From Candidatus Parcubacteria bacterium (GTDB lineage: Bacteria > Patescibacteriota > Patescibacteriia > UBA1558 > GWA2-36-10): 64,000 nt of DNA. Below the pieces are notes generated by a model. The model worked only from the letters and a program-made list of their open reading frames with translations, made no database searches and was not told the origin of the DNA. Made by a program: the position numbers and the translations under genes. How positions within the stretch are numbered: position 1 is the first letter of the stretch; each line of letters begins with the position of its first letter. This document shows positions 12,277 through 56,227 of the stretch, in pieces. Where the stretch lies: positions 51,127-115,126 of the forward strand of contig JABHSK010000009.1 in assembly GCA_018669975.1 (NCBI GenBank), given 5' to 3'.

Positions 12277-12618
12277 ATGTTTAGAAAAAAATTAGGAAAT
12301 GAAGGTGAGGAAATTGCCGCACAATACTATAAAAGCCTAGGTTGGCAGGTCATAGCCCAAAATTTTTGGACTCGTTATGGTGAGTTGGATTTGATATTGA
12401 AAAAAAATAAACAAATCTTGTTGGTAGAAGTTAAGACTAGGAGTAATTATAATTTTGGCTGGGCAGAAGAAAGCATAAATGAACAAAAAATACTAAGAAT
12501 GCAAGAGTCTTTCTACATTTTTAGTGAAGAATTTTCCTTTGGGGACACCTATTCAATTGAAATATGCTTGATTTATAAACGTGAAAATAAATTTTCCATA
12601 AAAAGATTAACCATATAA
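12277..12618 (+). CDS. YraN/UPF0102-family endonuclease-like protein
   Basis: GEEIAAQYYKSLGWQVIAQNFWTRYGELDLI...LVEVKTRS matches UPF0102. Confidence 0.7.
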   Translation: MFRKKLGNEGEEIAAQYYKSLGWQVIAQNFWTRYGELDLILKKNKQILLVEVKTRSNYNFGWAEESINEQKILRMQESFYIFSEEFSFGDTYSIEICLIYKRENKFSIKRLTI

Positions 12619-12623
12619 ATAGG

Positions 12624-12652
12624 TTGACTAATTGTACAAAAAACTGTATAGT
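12624..12652 (+). promoter_or_regulatory. sigma70-like promoter (TTGACT, 17 nt spacer, TATAGT) upstream of nusA
   Basis: -35 at 12624-12629, -10 at 12647-12652. Confidence 0.4.
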
Positions 12653-12712
12653 GTAAGAAGTTAAGCTAGTTACTCTGTAAACTAGCTTATTTTTATAAAT
12701 TAATATTGATTT

Positions 12713-14122
12713 ATGGCTACTGACAAAACCTTGGCCACTGCTATCAAACAGATTTGTGATGAAAAAAATCTGTCTATGGAAGCAGTAATCGGCGCTATAG
12801 AAGCAGCCCTAGCTGCTGCCTATAGAAAAGAATTCGGCGAAAAAGATCAAAACATCAAAGTATTATTTAATGCGGACAATGGCCAAACCGCTGTTTTTGA
12901 TGTTAAGACTGTCGTAGAAGACGTTGATCTTGAAGAGCAAGAAAAAATGCTAGAAGAATTAAGAGAAAGAAAAGAAGCAGGTGAAGAAATAGACGAGGAA
13001 GAGCTAATAAAGAAATTTAATCCTCGTACTGAACTTATGTTTTCTGAAGCTGAAGAAATCAGCAAAACCTACAAGGTTGGTGATATTATCGAGACCAAAC
13101 TTGAGGTGCCAGAAGAATATGGACGCATGGCTGCTCAAACTGCTAAGCAGGTAATTATTCAAAGGTTGCGTGAGGCCGAAAGAGATCACATCTTTAATGA
13201 ATACAAAGATAGAGAGGGTGAGCTAATACTAGGAACCATTCAACGTCGTGAGGGTCGTAGATATATTGTTGACCTGGGTCAAGCCAATGGCATTCTACCG
13301 CCAGAAGAACAAATTCGTAATGAAGGATATAATATCGGTACTCGACTAAATTTCTTTATTTATGAAGTAAAGGTTGGTAATAAGGGTCCTGAAATAATTT
13401 TATCGCGTACTCATCCAGAAATTGTCAAAGAGTTATTCGCCACTGAAGTGCCTGAAATTGCTGCTGGTTCAGTAGAGATCAAGGCTATTTCTAGAGAAGC
13501 TGGCGCACGCTCTAAAATTGCTGTGACAGCCAATGAAGAAAATATTGATCCAGTTGGATCATGTGTTGGCCAAAAAGGTGCTAGAGTACAAACCGTTATT
13601 AATGAACTAGGTGGTGAAAAAATAGACATTATTGAATGGGATGAAGATGAAAAGGCTTTTATCTCTAATGCTCTAAGCCCAGCCGAAATAGCTGACATAG
13701 ATCTTGATGAAGAGGAAAAAACTGCCTCTGTTAAGGTTAATGAAGATCAGCTTTCACTAGCCATTGGTAGGGGTGGGCAAAATGCTCGTTTAGCTGCTAA
13801 ACTAACTGGTTGGAAAATAGACATTGTATCCAATGAAACTGGTGATAAAATTAACGACAAAGGAGAAAACATACCAGAAAAAGATGAGGATGTAAAAGAA
13901 GATAAAGAGGAGAAAAAACCAGCTAAGAAAAAAGCTACTTCTAAAAAAACAGCTGATAAAGATGAAGACATAAAAGAAGACAAGGAAGAAAAGAAAAAAG
14001 AGAAAGAAGCTGTAAAAGAAGATAAAGAGGAGAAAAAACCAGCTAAGAAAAAAGCTACTTCTAAAAAAACAGCTGATAAAGATGTTAAAAAAACGAGTAA
14101 AAAGAAAACTACTAAAAAATAA
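12713..14122 (+). CDS. nusA: transcription termination/antitermination factor NusA with a lysine-rich repetitive C-terminal tail
   Basis: N-terminal domain, S1 domain (GELILGTIQRREGRRYIVDLG), two KH domains (VGSCVGQKGARVQTVINELGGEKIDII); last 95 aa are KEDKEEKKPAKKKATSKKTADKD repeats. Confidence 0.9.
   Translation: MATDKTLATAIKQICDEKNLSMEAVIGAIEAALAAAYRKEFGEKDQNIKVLFNADNGQTAVFDVKTVVEDVDLEEQEKMLEELRERKEAGEEIDEEELIKKFNPRTELMFSEAEEISKTYKVGDIIETKLEVPEEYGRMAAQTAKQVIIQRLREAERDHIFNEYKDREGELILGTIQRREGRRYIVDLGQANGILPPEEQIRNEGYNIGTRLNFFIYEVKVGNKGPEIILSRTHPEIVKELFATEVPEIAAGSVEIKAISREAGARSKIAVTANEENIDPVGSCVGQKGARVQTVINELGGEKIDIIEWDEDEKAFISNALSPAEIADIDLDEEEKTASVKVNEDQLSLAIGRGGQNARLAAKLTGWKIDIVSNETGDKINDKGENIPEKDEDVKEDKEEKKPAKKKATSKKTADKDEDIKEDKEEKKKEKEAVKEDKEEKKPAKKKATSKKTADKDVKKTSKKKTTKK
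13891..14084 (+). repeat. tandem direct repeat: identical 74-nt unit at 13891-13964 and 14011-14084 (period 120 nt) inside the nusA 3' end
   Basis: tgtaaaagaagataaagaggagaaaaaaccagctaagaaaaaagctacttctaaaaaaacagctgataaagatg occurs twice. Confidence 0.9.
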
Positions 14123-14149
14123 CTTAATATTTATTAATAATTCAACATT

Positions 14150-16207
14150 ATGCTAGATGTAAAACTATTAGCTATCTTAGCTGCCATTATCTCTATCGTT
14201 TTTGGTGTTGTATTGATCAAAAAAATACTTAAAGCACCAAGCGGTAATGACAAAATGAAAGAAATAGCCAATGCTATTCAGGAAGGCGCTAAAGCTTATT
14301 TAACTAGACAATATAAAACTATTGCTTATTTAGCAGTGGTTATATTTATTATCTTGGGATTTGCCACTCAAGATTGGATTACTGCCGTAGCCTTTTTGAT
14401 AGGTGCTATTCTATCTGCTGCTGCTGGCATCATTGGCATGAACGTTTCTGTTAGAGCTAATGTACGTACAGCTGAAGCAGCCCGAAAAGGCATTCAACCA
14501 GCCATGAACCTAGCTGTATTAGGTGGCTCTGTCACTGGCATGCTAGTAGTCGGCTTGGCACTCCTTGGAGTAGCTGGTATGTATGCCCTGCCTTTTGTTG
14601 AGGTGCATCATTTAATAGGCCTGGGTTTTGGTGGCTCTCTAATCTCTGTTTTTGCTAGATTAGGTGGTGGTATCTTCACCAAAGCAGCTGACGTTGGCGC
14701 CGATTTAGTCGGAAAAGTGGAGGCAGGTATTCCTGAAGATGACCCTAGAAACCCGGCTGTTATTGCTGACAATGTAGGTGACAATGTAGGTGACTGTGCT
14801 GGTATGGCCGCTGACCTATTTGAAACATATGCTGTTACGCTAGTAGCTGCTATGCTATTGGGTGGTCTAACCTATAAAACTATAGACGGTATGCCTATGG
14901 AAAATGCTGTACTTTATCCCTTGGCTCTAGGAGCTGTGGCTATTATCACCTCACTAATCGGTTTATTGTTTATCAAACTTGATAAGAAAAAAAGTGTCGA
15001 GGAAATAGAAAAAAATGACAGCATCATGAAGGCTTTATACAAAGGTTTAATTGCTGCTGGATTATTAACCGTAATTGGATTCTATTTTGTCACTAAAAAT
15101 ATGATGGACAGTCTAGTTATTACTAAATATATGGATATTTATTATGCTAGTTTAGTTGGGCTAGGTGTAACTGGATTCATCGTTTGGTTAACTGAATACT
15201 ATACTTCTACAAAGTATAAACCTGTACAGTCAATTGCCAAGGCCTCTGAAACAGGACATGGCACAAATATCATACAAGGATTGGCTATTAGTATGAAAGC
15301 TACCGTTTGGCCAGTATTAGTTATTGTAGCTGGTATTATTGCTGCTTATTATTTTGCTGACTTATATGGTATTGCTGTAGCTGCTATGAGTATGCTTTCC
15401 CTAGCTGGTATTATTGTCACTATTGATGCCTATGGACCAATTACTGATAACGCTGGCGGTATTGCTGAAATGGCTGAAATGCCAGAAGAGGTTAGAAAAA
15501 TCACTGACCCCCTAGATGCGGTTGGCAACACTACCAAGGCTGTTACCAAGGGCTACGCCATTGCTTCTGCTGCTTTAGCTGCGCTAGTATTATTTGCGGC
15601 TTACACTGAAGAGTTAGCTGCCGTAGGAAGAAACGCAGTCTTTGCCCTAGACAATCCTTACGTATTAGCTGGATTGTTTATTGGTGGACTATTGCCGTAC
15701 ATTTTCGGTGCTCTATCCATGGAGGCTGTCGGAAAAACTGCTGGGTACATTGTTAAAGAAGTAAGGAGACAATTTAAAGAAAAGCCTGGTATTATGGATG
15801 GTACAGAAAAACCAGATTATACAGCTGCTGTAGATATCGTCACCAAAGGCGCCCTTAAACAAATGATTGTGCCTGCATTGATACCCGTGGTGGTTCCTAT
15901 CTTGATTATTGTAGTATTCGGCAAAGATAATGGACTAGTTGCGTTAGGTGGTGCTCTAGTAGGAAGTATTGTCACTGGTATTTTTATGGCCTTATCAATG
16001 ACTTCTGGTGGTGGTGCTTGGGATAATGCTAAGAAATACATTGAAAGTGGTAATCATGGTGGCAAGGGATCTGAGGCTCACAAGGCTGCTATCACTGGAG
16101 ATACTGTTGGTGATCCTTATAAAGATACCGCTGGCCCAGCCATTAATCCAATGATTAAAATTCTTAATGTTGTAGCCTTACTATTAATAGCAATATTGTT
16201 TAAATAA
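14150..16207 (+). CDS. hppA: membrane-bound proton/sodium-translocating pyrophosphatase
   Basis: [42 protein letters not shown] and other signature motifs; 16 TM helices. Confidence 0.95.
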
Positions 16208-16212
16208 AAAAT

Positions 16213-17493
16213 ATGCAAATAACTAAAAAAGATCTAGGAAAAGGAGAGGTAGAACTAACTATTGAAGTATCACTAGAAGAATTGAAACCTCATTTGGAAA
16301 ATGCCGCTATTTCTCTTTCTAAAAAACATAAGGTTCCTGGTTTTCGACCAGGCAAGGCACCATTGGATTTGATCAAAAACAAATTCGGCGACATGGCGCT
16401 ATATCAAGAAGCTCTTGATGCTGCTATTTCAGATAGTTTTTATAAAGCAGTTACTAGAGAAAAATTACAAACCGTTGGGCAACCAAAAATCAATGTTGAT
16501 AAAATGGCTCCTGACAATCCTTTAATTTATAAAGCTGTAGTAGCCTTACTGCCCAAAGTAACTCTTGGTGAGTGGCAGAAAATCTCTGTCACCAAAAAAG
16601 AAGTTAAAGCAGAAGATAGCGACATCAACAAAACCCTCGAACAACTACAGACCATGAATGTCAAAGAAACTGTAGCGGAACGAGTTGCCAAAAAAGGCGA
16701 TAAAGTTGAACTTGATTTCGAAGTTTATTTAGACAAAGTAATTATTGAGGGAGGTAAAAATCCTAAATATCCAATCGTGATTGGTGAAAGTAAAATGATA
16801 CCTGGCTTTGAAGAACACATTATTGGTCTTAAGACTGGAGACAAAAAAGAATTTGAATTAAAATTTCCTGCTAAATACTTTCAAAATAATCTAGCTGGTA
16901 AACTAGCCACCTTCAAAATAAAAGTTTTACAAGTTTTTGATCGTGAATTACCAAAAATAGACGATGGATTTGCTAAAGGTGTAGGCTTTGAAGATTTAGC
17001 TAAACTAAAAAAACAACTAGTAGACAACATCACTCAAGATAAACAATCCAGAGAAAAACAAAGGGTGGAGAGTGAGTCTATTCAAGAAATAGTTAAGACG
17101 TCTGAATTTAGCGATCTGCCAGAATTACTCATAGATAATGAAATTCACAAAATGATTCATGAGCTGGAGCACAATATCACCAGCCAGGGCATGGACATGG
17201 CCGGATACCTAAAATCAATCAACAAGACTCATGATGATCTACATAAGGATTTTAGAGTGCAAGCCACTGAAAGGGTTAAGGCGGCACTAGTGTTACGCCA
17301 ACTAGCTACTGAAGAAAAAATCACTGCCGATGACAAAGAAGTGGAGGCTGAAATTGCTAAACAAAAAGAAACCTATAAAGACAACAAGCAGGCCTTGCAA
17401 AACATCGAAAATACCGGCCACAAACAACATATGGCCAATATGATAACCAACCAAAAAATCATTGAACTGATTGCTAAAACTGTTATAAAATAA
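16213..17493 (+). CDS. tig: trigger factor
   Basis: N-terminal ribosome-binding region with GFRPGKAP, central PPIase-like domain, C-terminal arm; 426 aa. Confidence 0.9.
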   Translation: MQITKKDLGKGEVELTIEVSLEELKPHLENAAISLSKKHKVPGFRPGKAPLDLIKNKFGDMALYQEALDAAISDSFYKAVTREKLQTVGQPKINVDKMAPDNPLIYKAVVALLPKVTLGEWQKISVTKKEVKAEDSDINKTLEQLQTMNVKETVAERVAKKGDKVELDFEVYLDKVIIEGGKNPKYPIVIGESKMIPGFEEHIIGLKTGDKKEFELKFPAKYFQNNLAGKLATFKIKVLQVFDRELPKIDDGFAKGVGFEDLAKLKKQLVDNITQDKQSREKQRVESESIQEIVKTSEFSDLPELLIDNEIHKMIHELEHNITSQGMDMAGYLKSINKTHDDLHKDFRVQATERVKAALVLRQLATEEKITADDKEVEAEIAKQKETYKDNKQALQNIENTGHKQHMANMITNQKIIELIAKTVIK

Positions 17494-19661: not shown

Positions 19662-19736
<75 letters not shown>

Positions 19737-19743
19737 AATAAAA

Positions 19744-19771
19744 ACGAGCTAAAAAACAGCTCGATTTTTTT
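19744..19771 (+). terminator. intrinsic terminator after tRNA-Cys
   Basis: cgagctaaaaaacagctcg hairpin followed by a T7 run. Confidence 0.5.
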
Positions 19772-19807
19772 ATATAAAAAAACAGCCCAAAAGCTGTTAA
19801 AAAATCT

Positions 19808-19893
19808 GGTACCGGCGATCGGACTTGAACCGATACGGCCTTACGGCCACAGGATTTTAAGTCCTGCGTGTCTACCAATTCCACCACGCCGGC
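19808..19893 (-). tRNA. tRNA-Leu (anticodon TAA), long variable arm
   Basis: Reverse complement GCCGGCGTGGTGGAATTGGTAGACACGCAGGACTTAAAATCCTG...GGTTCAAGTCCGATCGCCGGTACCA; hairpin plus T-run terminator at 19773-19806 on the minus strand. Confidence 0.85.
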
Positions 19894-19897
19894 ATAC

Positions 19898-19974
19898 TGG
19901 AGCGAGTGACCGGGCTCGAACCGGCGACCTTTTCCTTGGCAAGGAAATGTTCTAGCCAACTGAACTACACTCGC
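19898..19974 (-). tRNA. tRNA-Gly (anticodon GCC)
   Basis: Reverse complement GCGAGTGTAGTTCAGTTGGCTAGAACATTTCCTTGCCAAGGAAAAGGTCGCCGGTTCGAGCCCGGTCACTCGCTCCA. Confidence 0.85.
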
Positions 19975-53962: not shown

Positions 53963-56227
53963 TTATTTATCTTCGTCTTCCTCTTCATATTCATAATCCT
54001 CATCTTCTTCTGACTCATCACCATCCTCCTCATCTACGTCTTCTTCCTCAATCTCCTCCTCATCTAGTGGTGATGAAAAATTTTCTTCTAGCTCTTCTTG
54101 TGATATAAAAACTTCCCTTGGTTTTGCTCCATCAGCTGGACTAACCACTCCCATTTCTTCTAAAATGTCTAGCAATCTAGCTGCTCTAGCATAACCAACT
54201 CTTAAACGGCGCTGTAATAATGTAGCTGAAGCTTTACCAGCCTTAATAACTATTTCTTTAGCATCTAGTGTTAGTTCGTCTTCAAAGTCTTCGTTACCGC
54301 CAAAACCTGGCACCCCTTTACCAGCTTTTTCAGTTACCTTATCATTGTATTCTGGTTCCGCTTGATCTTTAATAAACTCCATAACATCTGTTATCTCTTC
54401 ATCGGAAACAAAAGCTCCTTGAATACGCCTTTGTTGTGAGCTGTCAGAAGTCATAAATAACATATCTCCTTTACCTAGCAATTTTTCTGCACCAGAAGTA
54501 TCAATAATTGTTCTGGAATCCATAGACGATGCTACCGCAAAAGCAATACGAGATGTAATATTAGCCTTAATCAATCCCGTAATAACATCGACAGACGGCC
54601 GCTGAGTAGCTAGAATCAAATGTATACCTGCAGCTCTGCCTAGTTGGGCCAAACTAACCACGGCCGCTTCTACCTCCTTGGCTGCCAAAGACATTAAAGC
54701 AGCAAATTCATCGACTATAACTACTATATAAGGCAGGCGATTAACTATTACTGCTTTATTATAACTGTCTATATTTTTTTTTCCAGCTGCTTGCAACAGT
54801 TTATACCTTTCTTGCATCTCTGAAACCACCCAACGAAGGGCGTTGATGGTTTTATCGGTCTCATTAATAACTGGTGTCAAAAGATGTGGACTGTTATTAA
54901 ATGAGGTTAATTCCACTCTCTTGGGATCAATTAAAATAAATTTTAAATCCTCTGGGGAATTCTGATAAATCAAACTAAGAATAATATTATTAATAGCAAC
55001 TGATTTACCAGATCCAGTTGAACCAGCAATCAATAGGTGCGGCATGGCTGCTAAGTTAGCCAGGATAGCCTTGCCGCTGACATCCTTACCTAAGGCTAAA
55101 TGAAGATTATTTTTTCTTTTTTTATATTCACTGCTCTCCAAAATATCCCTAAGTTTTACTATAGACACACTCTGGTTGGGAACCTCGATTCCTACTAATG
55201 ATTTACCAGGAATGGGTGCCTCCATACGCAAAGGGTGTGCAGCCAAAGCTAGAGACAAATCGTTCTGTAAAGTCAACATTTGTGAAAGCTTAACACCATC
55301 AGCTGGTCTTAAAGTATATTGCGTAACAGTAGGACCAACATTAACATCGCTCATAGTTACATCAATGCCAAAGTTTTCCAGAGTCTTCTTAATCTTGTTC
55401 ATGTTAGCATTAACGTCCCCTGAGTCTGGTTTACCACTAGATTTCTTGAGCAACTCAATAGGTACAACAATTTTTTTACGCGGCTTTTTCTTAGCTGGCT
55501 CTTCATCCTCCTCTGGATCTCCTTCGTCGTCTTCCTCTTCTTCTCCCTCATCCTCCTCTGGATCTCCTTCGTCGTCTTCCTCTTCTTCTTCATCGGGCTC
55601 AAACTCTGACCCCTCCTCGTCGTCTTCCTCTTCATCATCTTCTTCGTCATCTTCCTCCGTCAAAAACTTTTCCTTGAGTATACCCAAGGCCTTAGCTCTT
55701 TCAGTAATATCTTTAAATGATGTATTAAAAGCCAGAAATATTCCGATCAATAACATGGCTATTAAAACTACCAATGTGCCCCAAAATCCTAATAATTTTT
55801 CAAAGCCCACGCCAACACCAAATCCCAAGGCACCACCACCGGTTCCTGCTTTAGTAATTTCTTTAAATGTAAACTCATCTACAAAAAAGTGTAATATACC
55901 AGCAAAAGAAACAATAATTAAAAAAAGTCCAATATAGCTAATGAGCTTAACTTTGTATTGTCCGCTCTTTAATAAAATAAATCCTAAAAATATCAACACT
56001 AATATAAACAACCAATCACCCCAGCCAAATAAATAAGCTAAAGCAAAATTAAGACCCCTGCCCAGAGCCCCAGCCAAATCAAACATTGATAGAATACTTA
56101 AAAAAGCAATTACAAAAATCAGAATAGTGAAAATGGCTCCCTTGGTCTCGGGATTGAGATGAAAACCATCCTCTTCATACTCATCTCTATAAGATCTCCT
56201 TTTTTTAGGTTTTTTTCTTCCAAACAT
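53963..56227 (-). CDS. ftsK: DNA translocase FtsK/SpoIIIE with long acidic linker and acidic C-terminal tail
   Basis: 4-5 N-terminal TM helices, poly-Asp/Glu linker, motor domain Walker A GSTGSGKS, gamma domain LLQRRLRVGYARAARLLDILEEMGVV, then a 50-aa acidic tail. Confidence 0.9.
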   Translation of the reverse strand: MFGRKKPKKRRSYRDEYEEDGFHLNPETKGAIFTILIFVIAFLSILSMFDLAGALGRGLNFALAYLFGWGDWLFILVLIFLGFILLKSGQYKVKLISYIGLFLIIVSFAGILHFFVDEFTFKEITKAGTGGGALGFGVGVGFEKLLGFWGTLVVLIAMLLIGIFLAFNTSFKDITERAKALGILKEKFLTEEDDEEDDEEEDDEEGSEFEPDEEEEEDDEGDPEEDEGEEEEDDEGDPEEDEEPAKKKPRKKIVVPIELLKKSSGKPDSGDVNANMNKIKKTLENFGIDVTMSDVNVGPTVTQYTLRPADGVKLSQMLTLQNDLSLALAAHPLRMEAPIPGKSLVGIEVPNQSVSIVKLRDILESSEYKKRKNNLHLALGKDVSGKAILANLAAMPHLLIAGSTGSGKSVAINNIILSLIYQNSPEDLKFILIDPKRVELTSFNNSPHLLTPVINETDKTINALRWVVSEMQERYKLLQAAGKKNIDSYNKAVIVNRLPYIVVIVDEFAALMSLAAKEVEAAVVSLAQLGRAAGIHLILATQRPSVDVITGLIKANITSRIAFAVASSMDSRTIIDTSGAEKLLGKGDMLFMTSDSSQQRRIQGAFVSDEEITDVMEFIKDQAEPEYNDKVTEKAGKGVPGFGGNEDFEDELTLDAKEIVIKAGKASATLLQRRLRVGYARAARLLDILEEMGVVSPADGAKPREVFISQEELEENFSSPLDEEEIEEEDVDEEDGDESEEDEDYEYEEEDEDK

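Follow-up and report, generated by a model that had tools for sequence, protein, structure and literature searches.

A lysine-rich, mixed-charge C-terminal tail with variable repeat modules on NusA of a Parcubacteria lineage

The NusA protein encoded in the stretch of 64,000 nucleotides analysed here (referred to as the window) continues beyond its second KH domain into a lysine-rich tail of mixed charge, and alleles of the gene differ by whole in-frame modules of this tail. We regard the tail as a lineage-specific disordered extension of NusA whose modules are gained and lost, and which may act as an electrostatic tether of low specificity for RNA or the ribosome. We put the probability of this reading at about one half. 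That the tail would bind RNA or the ribosome is suggested by its composition and by analogy to other systems.

The open reading frame at 12713..14122 (forward strand, as are all features described below) encodes 469 amino acids followed by a TAA stop codon and is the nusA gene. In front of it, a conserved nusA leader hairpin is located at 12662–12689. Its product matches TIGR01953 with an E-value of 7e-114 across residues 8–374, at a score of 380.4 bits as compared with the curated cut-off of 253.4. The Pfam domains NusA_N, KH_5 and KH_NusA_C are present, the best NusA chains in PDB match at 1e-78, and the domain architecture consists of an N-terminal domain (NTD), S1, KH1 and KH2. According to the AlphaFold2 model and the PDB alignments, these domains make up a folded core of residues 1–375 (12713..13837). 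KH2 ends at about residue 375, with the PDB NusA chains ceasing to align at residues 371–383. In the AlphaFold2 model, which was computed from an alignment of 61 sequences, pLDDT exceeds 90 for core residues 160–375. The core has a net charge of −28. Its NTD bears an acidic insertion of 30 amino acids, and NusA of Thermotoga maritima (1hh2) aligns with residues 7–72 and 103–371.

The tail comprises residues 376–469 (13838..14119). Among its 94 residues are 36 Lys, 15 Glu, 12 Asp, 8 Thr, 7 Ala and 3 Pro, while Arg and Gln do not occur. As 38% lysine is found together with 29% Asp/Glu, the tail is a mixed-charge polyampholyte. Its net charge is +9 (+0.10 per residue), distributed as −6, +4, −2, +8 and +5 over consecutive 20-residue blocks. 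An acidic stretch adjoins KH2 and is followed by three lysine blocks spaced by KEDKEE-type stretches. From the sequence and the charge string, the first block, KKPAKKKATSKK, was located at residues 401–412 (13913..13948) and contains seven Lys and no acidic residue. The second block, again KKPAKKKATSKK, covers residues 441–452 (14033..14068), and the protein ends with KKTSKKKTTKK at residues 459–469 (14087..14119). The model gives the tail pLDDT values of 42–53 and no secondary structure; on this prediction it is best called intrinsically disordered. A single alpha-helix of the E/K-rich type was considered and rejected, as AlphaFold2 gives no helix and only these low values in residues 376–469, a verdict to which the limits of AlphaFold2 apply.

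Tails of the histone H1 type, such as the H1 C-terminal domain, AlgP, Hc1 and the mycobacterial HupB tail, are strongly net basic and have few acidic residues. The original prediction had described the NusA tail as a basic, histone-H1-like tail, and there are indeed common features: lysine rather than arginine in blocks with Ala, Pro, Ser and Thr, disorder and short repeats. The likeness may extend to short motifs of the (S/T)KK or KPxKKK type: KKPAKKKATSKK occurs twice, and [ST]KK and K[PS]x?KKK are more frequent among related tails than in shuffled sequences, although these counts are suggestive only (see below). Nevertheless, the acidic residues and the small net charge of the tail set it apart from the H1 type, and the description as histone-H1-like had to be abandoned. 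Net charge averages about 0 in the related tails and ranges from −17 to +15, so net-basic nucleic-acid binding is not a family-wide property. Searches with the tail alone assigned no family in Pfam (E <= 10; best value E = 4.2, for DUF4662), found no chain in PDB (E <= 10) and returned nothing at E <= 1e-3 from 5.8 billion proteins in a word/HMMER search. Homology to H1, Hc1 or AlgP was rejected on these grounds. The tail thus resembles H1 only superficially.

The AR1/AR2 domains of Escherichia coli NusA are likewise located directly after KH2, are rich in acidic residues and represent a lineage-restricted addition to the NusA core. However, each of the two is a folded (HhH)2 domain with a length of about 70 amino acids, whereas the tail is modelled as coil at low pLDDT and has its high lysine content. 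No HhH or AR family was found in Pfam or NCBIfam, in agreement with the earlier proposal of an appended tail different from AR1/AR2. No helices are predicted in residues 376–469, and the alignment of E. coli NusA chains containing AR1/AR2 is confined to residues 104–373.

Two copies of a 24-residue peptide, VKEDKEEKKPAKKKATSKKTADKD, are found in the tail (V394–D417 and V434–D457). They are encoded by nucleotides 13891..13964 and 14011..14084 (repeat family D2), which are identical over 74 nt, with the identity ending there on both sides. The chance expectation of an exact 74-nt repeat at the same DNA composition is about 3e-25. TRF reports a period of 120 nt at 13891–14108, so that the unit, its period and its coordinates as given in the original prediction were reproduced exactly. 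Since the two units do not differ by a single nucleotide, a recent copying event is indicated, which upholds the earlier interpretation of this identity. The mechanism proposed at that time, a 120-bp duplication, needs correction, as the duplication covers just 74 of the 120 nt. A simple tandem duplication in one step would leave 120 nt of identity; the neighbouring 46 nt match at chance level or at 75% identity, and this mechanism was rejected because it does not explain a layout of 74 + 46 + 74 nt. The 46-nt spacer (13965..14010, EDIKEDKEEKKKEKEA) holds an older, diverged partial module (family D1, 75% identity; alignment A2). Three modules therefore make up the layout, namely A, an older copy in truncated form, and A once more. 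We infer from the sequence that it probably arose by an old module duplication together with recent copying or conversion of the 74-nt tract.

An allele with one copy, which lacks 13965–14084 or an equivalent register, is present in public data. The 429-residue protein (P0123) corresponds to the window protein minus exactly 40 amino acids, and the pair P0121/P0123 has no mismatch. In contigs L082 and L083, position 13964 is joined straight to 14085, with 120 nt absent, and both are elsewhere 100% identical to the window. The one-copy contigs (L082 from ENA, SAMN05224481; L083/L089 from JGI 3300004111) originate from a different sample than the window and from two assembly pipelines. When JGI metagenome contigs were scanned with a 25-mer from the junction of KH2 and tail, the known one-copy contig was the sole match. 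Most simply, the one-copy allele would have arisen by deletion between the two 74-nt repeats.

Comparable length differences occur in two sister lineages. In the first (P0002/P0124) the proteins have no mismatch and differ by an indel of 54 amino acids, corresponding to one versus three units of 27 amino acids; in the second (P0125/P0128), again with no mismatch, the indel comprises 58 amino acids. The contigs from these lineages are 99.5–99.9% identical in the flanks and, as they carry a few SNPs there, represent distinct strains. Together with the one-copy allele, these indels bear out the earlier suggestion of a length-variable site. Alleles differing by whole in-frame modules in otherwise identical genes are thus found, as known from assembled contigs and proteins.

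The one-copy allele, which is known from contigs of about 2 kb, could be an assembly collapse, and the difference between one and two copies would then be a mis-assembly of a short repeat. An exact repeat of 74 nt is below what many assembler k-mers resolve, and the one-copy contigs measure only 2077 and 1894 nt, with flanks completely identical to the window. We consider such an artefact very unlikely, however. Only a template carrying two or more copies can have supplied the unique 46-nt spacer. The 469-residue two-copy protein is encoded without any change on 5–6 public contigs (GenBank MBT6691687.1), which stem from several sources and reach 844 kb in length, and the two-copy state is thus not peculiar to one assembly. 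A two-copy contig comes, for instance, from sample SAMN05224487. The one-copy form was obtained by two pipelines (ENA re-assembly and JGI), and the ENA pipeline behind the one-copy contig yields two copies in another sample. Finally, the indel polymorphism recurs in the two sister lineages, whose flanks bear SNPs.

Perfect direct repeats, alleles that vary by complete in-frame modules and the reappearance of this pattern in sister lineages are features shared with VNTR-like coding repeats of bacteria. Classical contingency loci differ in that surface or restriction genes are switched on and off by frameshift, whereas the changes described here are in-frame and affect a housekeeping transcription factor.

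The nearest relatives belong to uncultivated Patescibacteria, carry the annotation Parcubacteria or Komeilibacteria and share 67–88% identity in the NusA core. Judging by the names of MAGs and samples, the DNA probably originates from a marine water-column series. Alignment of the orthologues, which the original prediction had proposed as a check, revealed a tail in 128 of 128 close relatives, with a length of 19–110 amino acids (median 52); the sampling is biased because KEDKEEKK was among the search patterns. Lysine is almost the only basic residue of the two counted in the pooled tails (2181 Lys versus 26 Arg, n = 128), and the acidic fraction (D+E) is about 0.32. In 109 of the 128 tails the half next to KH2 carries a net acidic charge, and in 92 the distal half is net basic. 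Internal repeats that are exact over 8 amino acids or more are found in 14 of the 128.

In a comparison of 71 species-level genomes, the lysine fraction of the tail drops as GC content rises (Spearman rho = −0.59), with acidity constant at about 0.3 throughout. The tails of the high-GC Uhrbacteria are rich in Ala, Pro, Glu and Asp. Of 32 low-GC tails, however, 11 are lysine-poor. Lysine richness is a trait of low-GC lineages, and part of it may be AT-driven. As acidity is independent of GC and lysine is not, the phylum-wide constant is described by the terms acidic and disordered, and this is perhaps the conserved property.

The constancy of the acidic fraction, which is the least variable tail property across Patescibacteria, would also fit a protein-docking element, either as a substitute for AR1/AR2 or as an expressome tether of the Mycoplasma type. 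The acidic stretches would then either engage a partner of basic charge or loop back onto the RNA-binding S1/KH surface (auto-inhibition, as by AR2), and the lysine blocks would bind acidic surfaces of the ribosome or of RNA polymerase. There are precedents for both versions. AR2 binds to KH1 in E. coli and prevents the binding of RNA (PMC7414142). In Mycoplasma pneumoniae, NusA has a disordered C-terminal extension, absent from E. coli and Bacillus subtilis, which crosslinks to 30S ribosomal proteins including S10 (bioRxiv 10.1101/2020.02.28.970111). The latter extension is similar to the tail in being disordered, lineage-specific, located after KH2 and encoded in a small AT-rich genome, but it is proline-rich, whereas the window's tail has only its three Pro and is rich in Lys, Glu and Asp. 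Of the two marks of a Mycoplasma-type tether, the disordered extension after KH2 is thus present and the proline-rich composition is absent. Furthermore, Uhrbacteria tails hold the conserved motif LDEHGE[HKR]AER..EAD, which shows that some NusA tails in Patescibacteria carry linear motifs. In the tails of the lineage studied here, however, no conserved linear motif was found except ETGDKI beside KH2 and generic lysine motifs. A change of copy number would be unusual in a docking site, and the acidic insertion in the NTD does not co-vary with the lysine content of the tail (rho = 0.01). We consider a docking element unlikely.

The main rival to the tether reading is a near-neutral, solubility-selected appendage, followed by docking or auto-inhibition; the artefact is unlikely. 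As such an appendage, the tail would be a tolerated low-complexity sequence without specific binding, in which slippage in A-rich DNA makes and removes modules at a permissive C-terminus and selection purges only harmful (hydrophobic, aggregation-prone) variants. It would serve at most as a solubilizing ‘entropic bristle’. We rate this reading as rather doubtful. It is consistent with tails that cannot be aligned even where core identity reaches 88%, with their wide length range and the variation of whole modules between otherwise identical proteins, with a lysine content that follows GC, with the failure to find homologues, and with a charge patterning of the window's tail that does not differ from permutations. 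On the other hand, a tail of at least 19 amino acids is retained in every close relative, and four results point to selection.

First, a lysine-rich low-complexity region is present in only one of the 54 window ORFs, namely NusA. Second, the composition deviates from what is expected from the tail's own nucleotide content: per 94 codons there are no Arg (about 10 expected), 2 Asn (7.3), no Gln (4.2) and no stops (about 7), and the avoidance of Arg, Asn and Gln is strong despite the A-rich DNA. At the second codon position, 69% A and 3% G are found. Third, the older module pair, KDEDVKEDKEEKK (residues 390–402) and KDEDIKEDKEEKK (residues 416–428), differs by seven synonymous changes and one conservative change (V/I), indicating purifying selection on the module peptide. 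The corresponding probability is P = 3e-6 with Nei–Gojobori site proportions and about 0.003 in a hand calculation with a transition-only model. Fourth, the tails have the acidic-to-basic polarity in common and are enriched in short motifs. As compared with composition-preserving shuffles, [ST]KK occurs in 81 of 115 distinct tails of relatives (52 expected), K[PS]x?KKK in 25 (7.7 expected) and a C-terminal KK in 50 (16.6 expected); because the sequences are related, neither these counts nor those of the polarity are independent, and they are suggestive only.

A generic product of AT bias as the sole cause was rejected in view of the single lysine-rich ORF among 54 and of a composition off the nucleotide-shuffle expectation, even though the lysine fraction still tracks GC. 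As regards the degree of constraint, the 5-fold variation in length, the dispensability of modules between strains and a charge segregation no greater than that of permutations speak against a strong one.

In the tether reading, the tail occupies the position which the folded AR1/AR2 domains have in proteobacterial NusA. It would change as modules in the A-rich DNA are added or removed in frame, either by slippage or because direct repeats recombine with each other, so that close strains differ by whole modules (here 40 amino acids). Selection would keep the composition and the short motifs of the tail rather than a fold. The lysine blocks would probably provide additional, salt-sensitive nucleic-acid contacts of low specificity near the RNA exit path, the candidate partners being nascent RNA or the rRNA of the 30S subunit. 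In turn, the acidic stretches may temper or compete with this binding and maintain the solubility of the tail, and the number of modules would set its valency. An association of lysine-rich low-complexity regions with nucleic-acid binding has been described for prokaryotes (PMC6821194). The 30S crosslinks of the M. pneumoniae extension and the influence of AR2 on RNA binding by way of KH1 in E. coli, both cited above, are further precedents for this reading.

The tail had also been proposed to be condensate-forming. In its most far-reaching form, this reading assigns to NusA a scaffold role in a transcription condensate which, in these ultra-small cells, would resemble a nucleolus. The tail would be convergent with the disordered regions of eukaryotic Pol I and fibrillar-centre proteins, and the number of modules in a strain would tune phase behaviour or RNA valency of the machinery for rRNA transcription. 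NusA is a member of rrn antitermination complexes. The reading draws on the droplets formed by NusA in E. coli (PMC7414142) and on the nucleolar grammar of lysine blocks and E-rich regions described for LYAR, PolR1F/G and NUCKS (PMC11938373). With these proteins the tail shares polyampholytic, disordered lysine blocks among acidic stretches on a protein of rRNA transcription, as well as at least as many Glu as Asp (15 and 12). However, the grammar calls for a patterning z-score of at least 3, whereas the window's tail reaches only 0.65 (p = 0.24) by a kappa-like blockiness measure, which is a proxy and not the published metric. The charge blockiness is thus within the expectation from permutations and lends no support to the proposed condensate formation. 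Among the relatives the mean z is 1.05, with values above 2 in 24 of 106 tails. We regard a condensate scaffold as very unlikely.

Charged low-complexity tails on nucleic-acid-binding proteins are frequent in AT-rich genomes. In the literature on lysine-rich NusA tails and on lysine-rich disorder in Patescibacteria or the Candidate Phyla Radiation, no description of the tail was found. Lineage-specific C-terminal extensions of NusA and charged low-complexity tails on RNA-binding proteins are known kinds, and the tail belongs to both. Taken alone, the finding is a modest curiosity, a clade-wide yet modest peculiarity and not a histone-like domain.

NusA is universal and essential, and its C-terminal additions decide on its partners: in E. 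coli these are the RNA polymerase alpha-CTD, lambda N and IF2, and in Mycoplasma the partner is the ribosome. The genomes of Patescibacteria are reduced and, to our knowledge, there are no cultured models. The natural alleles with one, two and three modules constitute a ready series in which the influence of disordered-tail valency on a core machine can be studied. A charged tail which is found clade-wide, is under selection and is rapidly remodelled suggests that RNA tethering or the coupling of transcription and translation is handled differently in these organisms.

The nusA gene lies between a gene for a UPF0102/YraN-like nuclease and those for an H+-pyrophosphatase (14150–16207) and trigger factor, in that order (12277–17493). 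In the usual operon, nusA is preceded by rimP and followed by infB. The gene order at 12277–17493 departs from this arrangement in that rimP is missing before nusA and infB after it, and relatives retain the order found here.

The nusA leader region (12624–12712) contains a sigma-70-like promoter, TTGACT-17-TATAGT (12624–12652), followed, 24 nt ahead of the nusA ATG, by a 10 bp hairpin (12662–12689) and a U-run. Promoter, hairpin and T-run were all found again in the nusA upstream regions of relatives (loci L001, L003, L006, L009, L010, L015, L064, L084, L086 and L088), and comparison with relatives revealed compensatory changes in three of nine stem pairs. The hairpin with its U-run is a candidate for a leader terminator or attenuator through which NusA would regulate its own gene.

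In comparison with Thermotoga maritima NusA (PDB 1hh2), the N-terminal domain carries a strongly acidic helical insertion of 30 residues (residues 73–102, encoded by 12929–13018), of which residues 73–88 are predicted by AlphaFold2 to form a helix. The N-terminal domain segment is 92–150 residues long in most sampled Patescibacteria and 65 residues long in several sampled loci from outside this group. Its length did not correlate with the lysine content of the tail among the sampled NusA loci. The DNA encoding the tail contains nine A6–A7 runs (13913–14120), which could favour transcriptional or replicative slippage.

The acidic NusA tails of high-GC Uhrbacteria-type genomes (loci L030, L032, L036, L037, L038 and L041) have a short conserved motif in common, LDEHGE[HKR]AER..EAD, outside of which they cannot be aligned. 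The motif may serve in docking.

Among the 54 ORFs of the window, highly charged low-complexity sequence is present, besides NusA, only in FtsK/SpoIIIE (754 residues; 53963–56227, minus strand). Its membrane and motor domains are joined by a linker of about 55 residues consisting exclusively of Asp and Glu, and its C-terminal tail, EEDVDEEDGDESEEDEDYEYEEEDEDK, is also very acidic.

Four tRNA genes, Glu(ttc), Cys(gca), Leu(taa) and Gly(gcc), were found at 814–888 and 19662–19974, the last three forming a cluster flanked by a 276-residue ORF and polA. Over 5.8 kb, contig L081, which stems from a different sample, matches the window at every position but 15556 and 15559 in hppA, 3 nt apart, each of them a C/T difference. 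These differences show that the organism has microdiversity at strain level.
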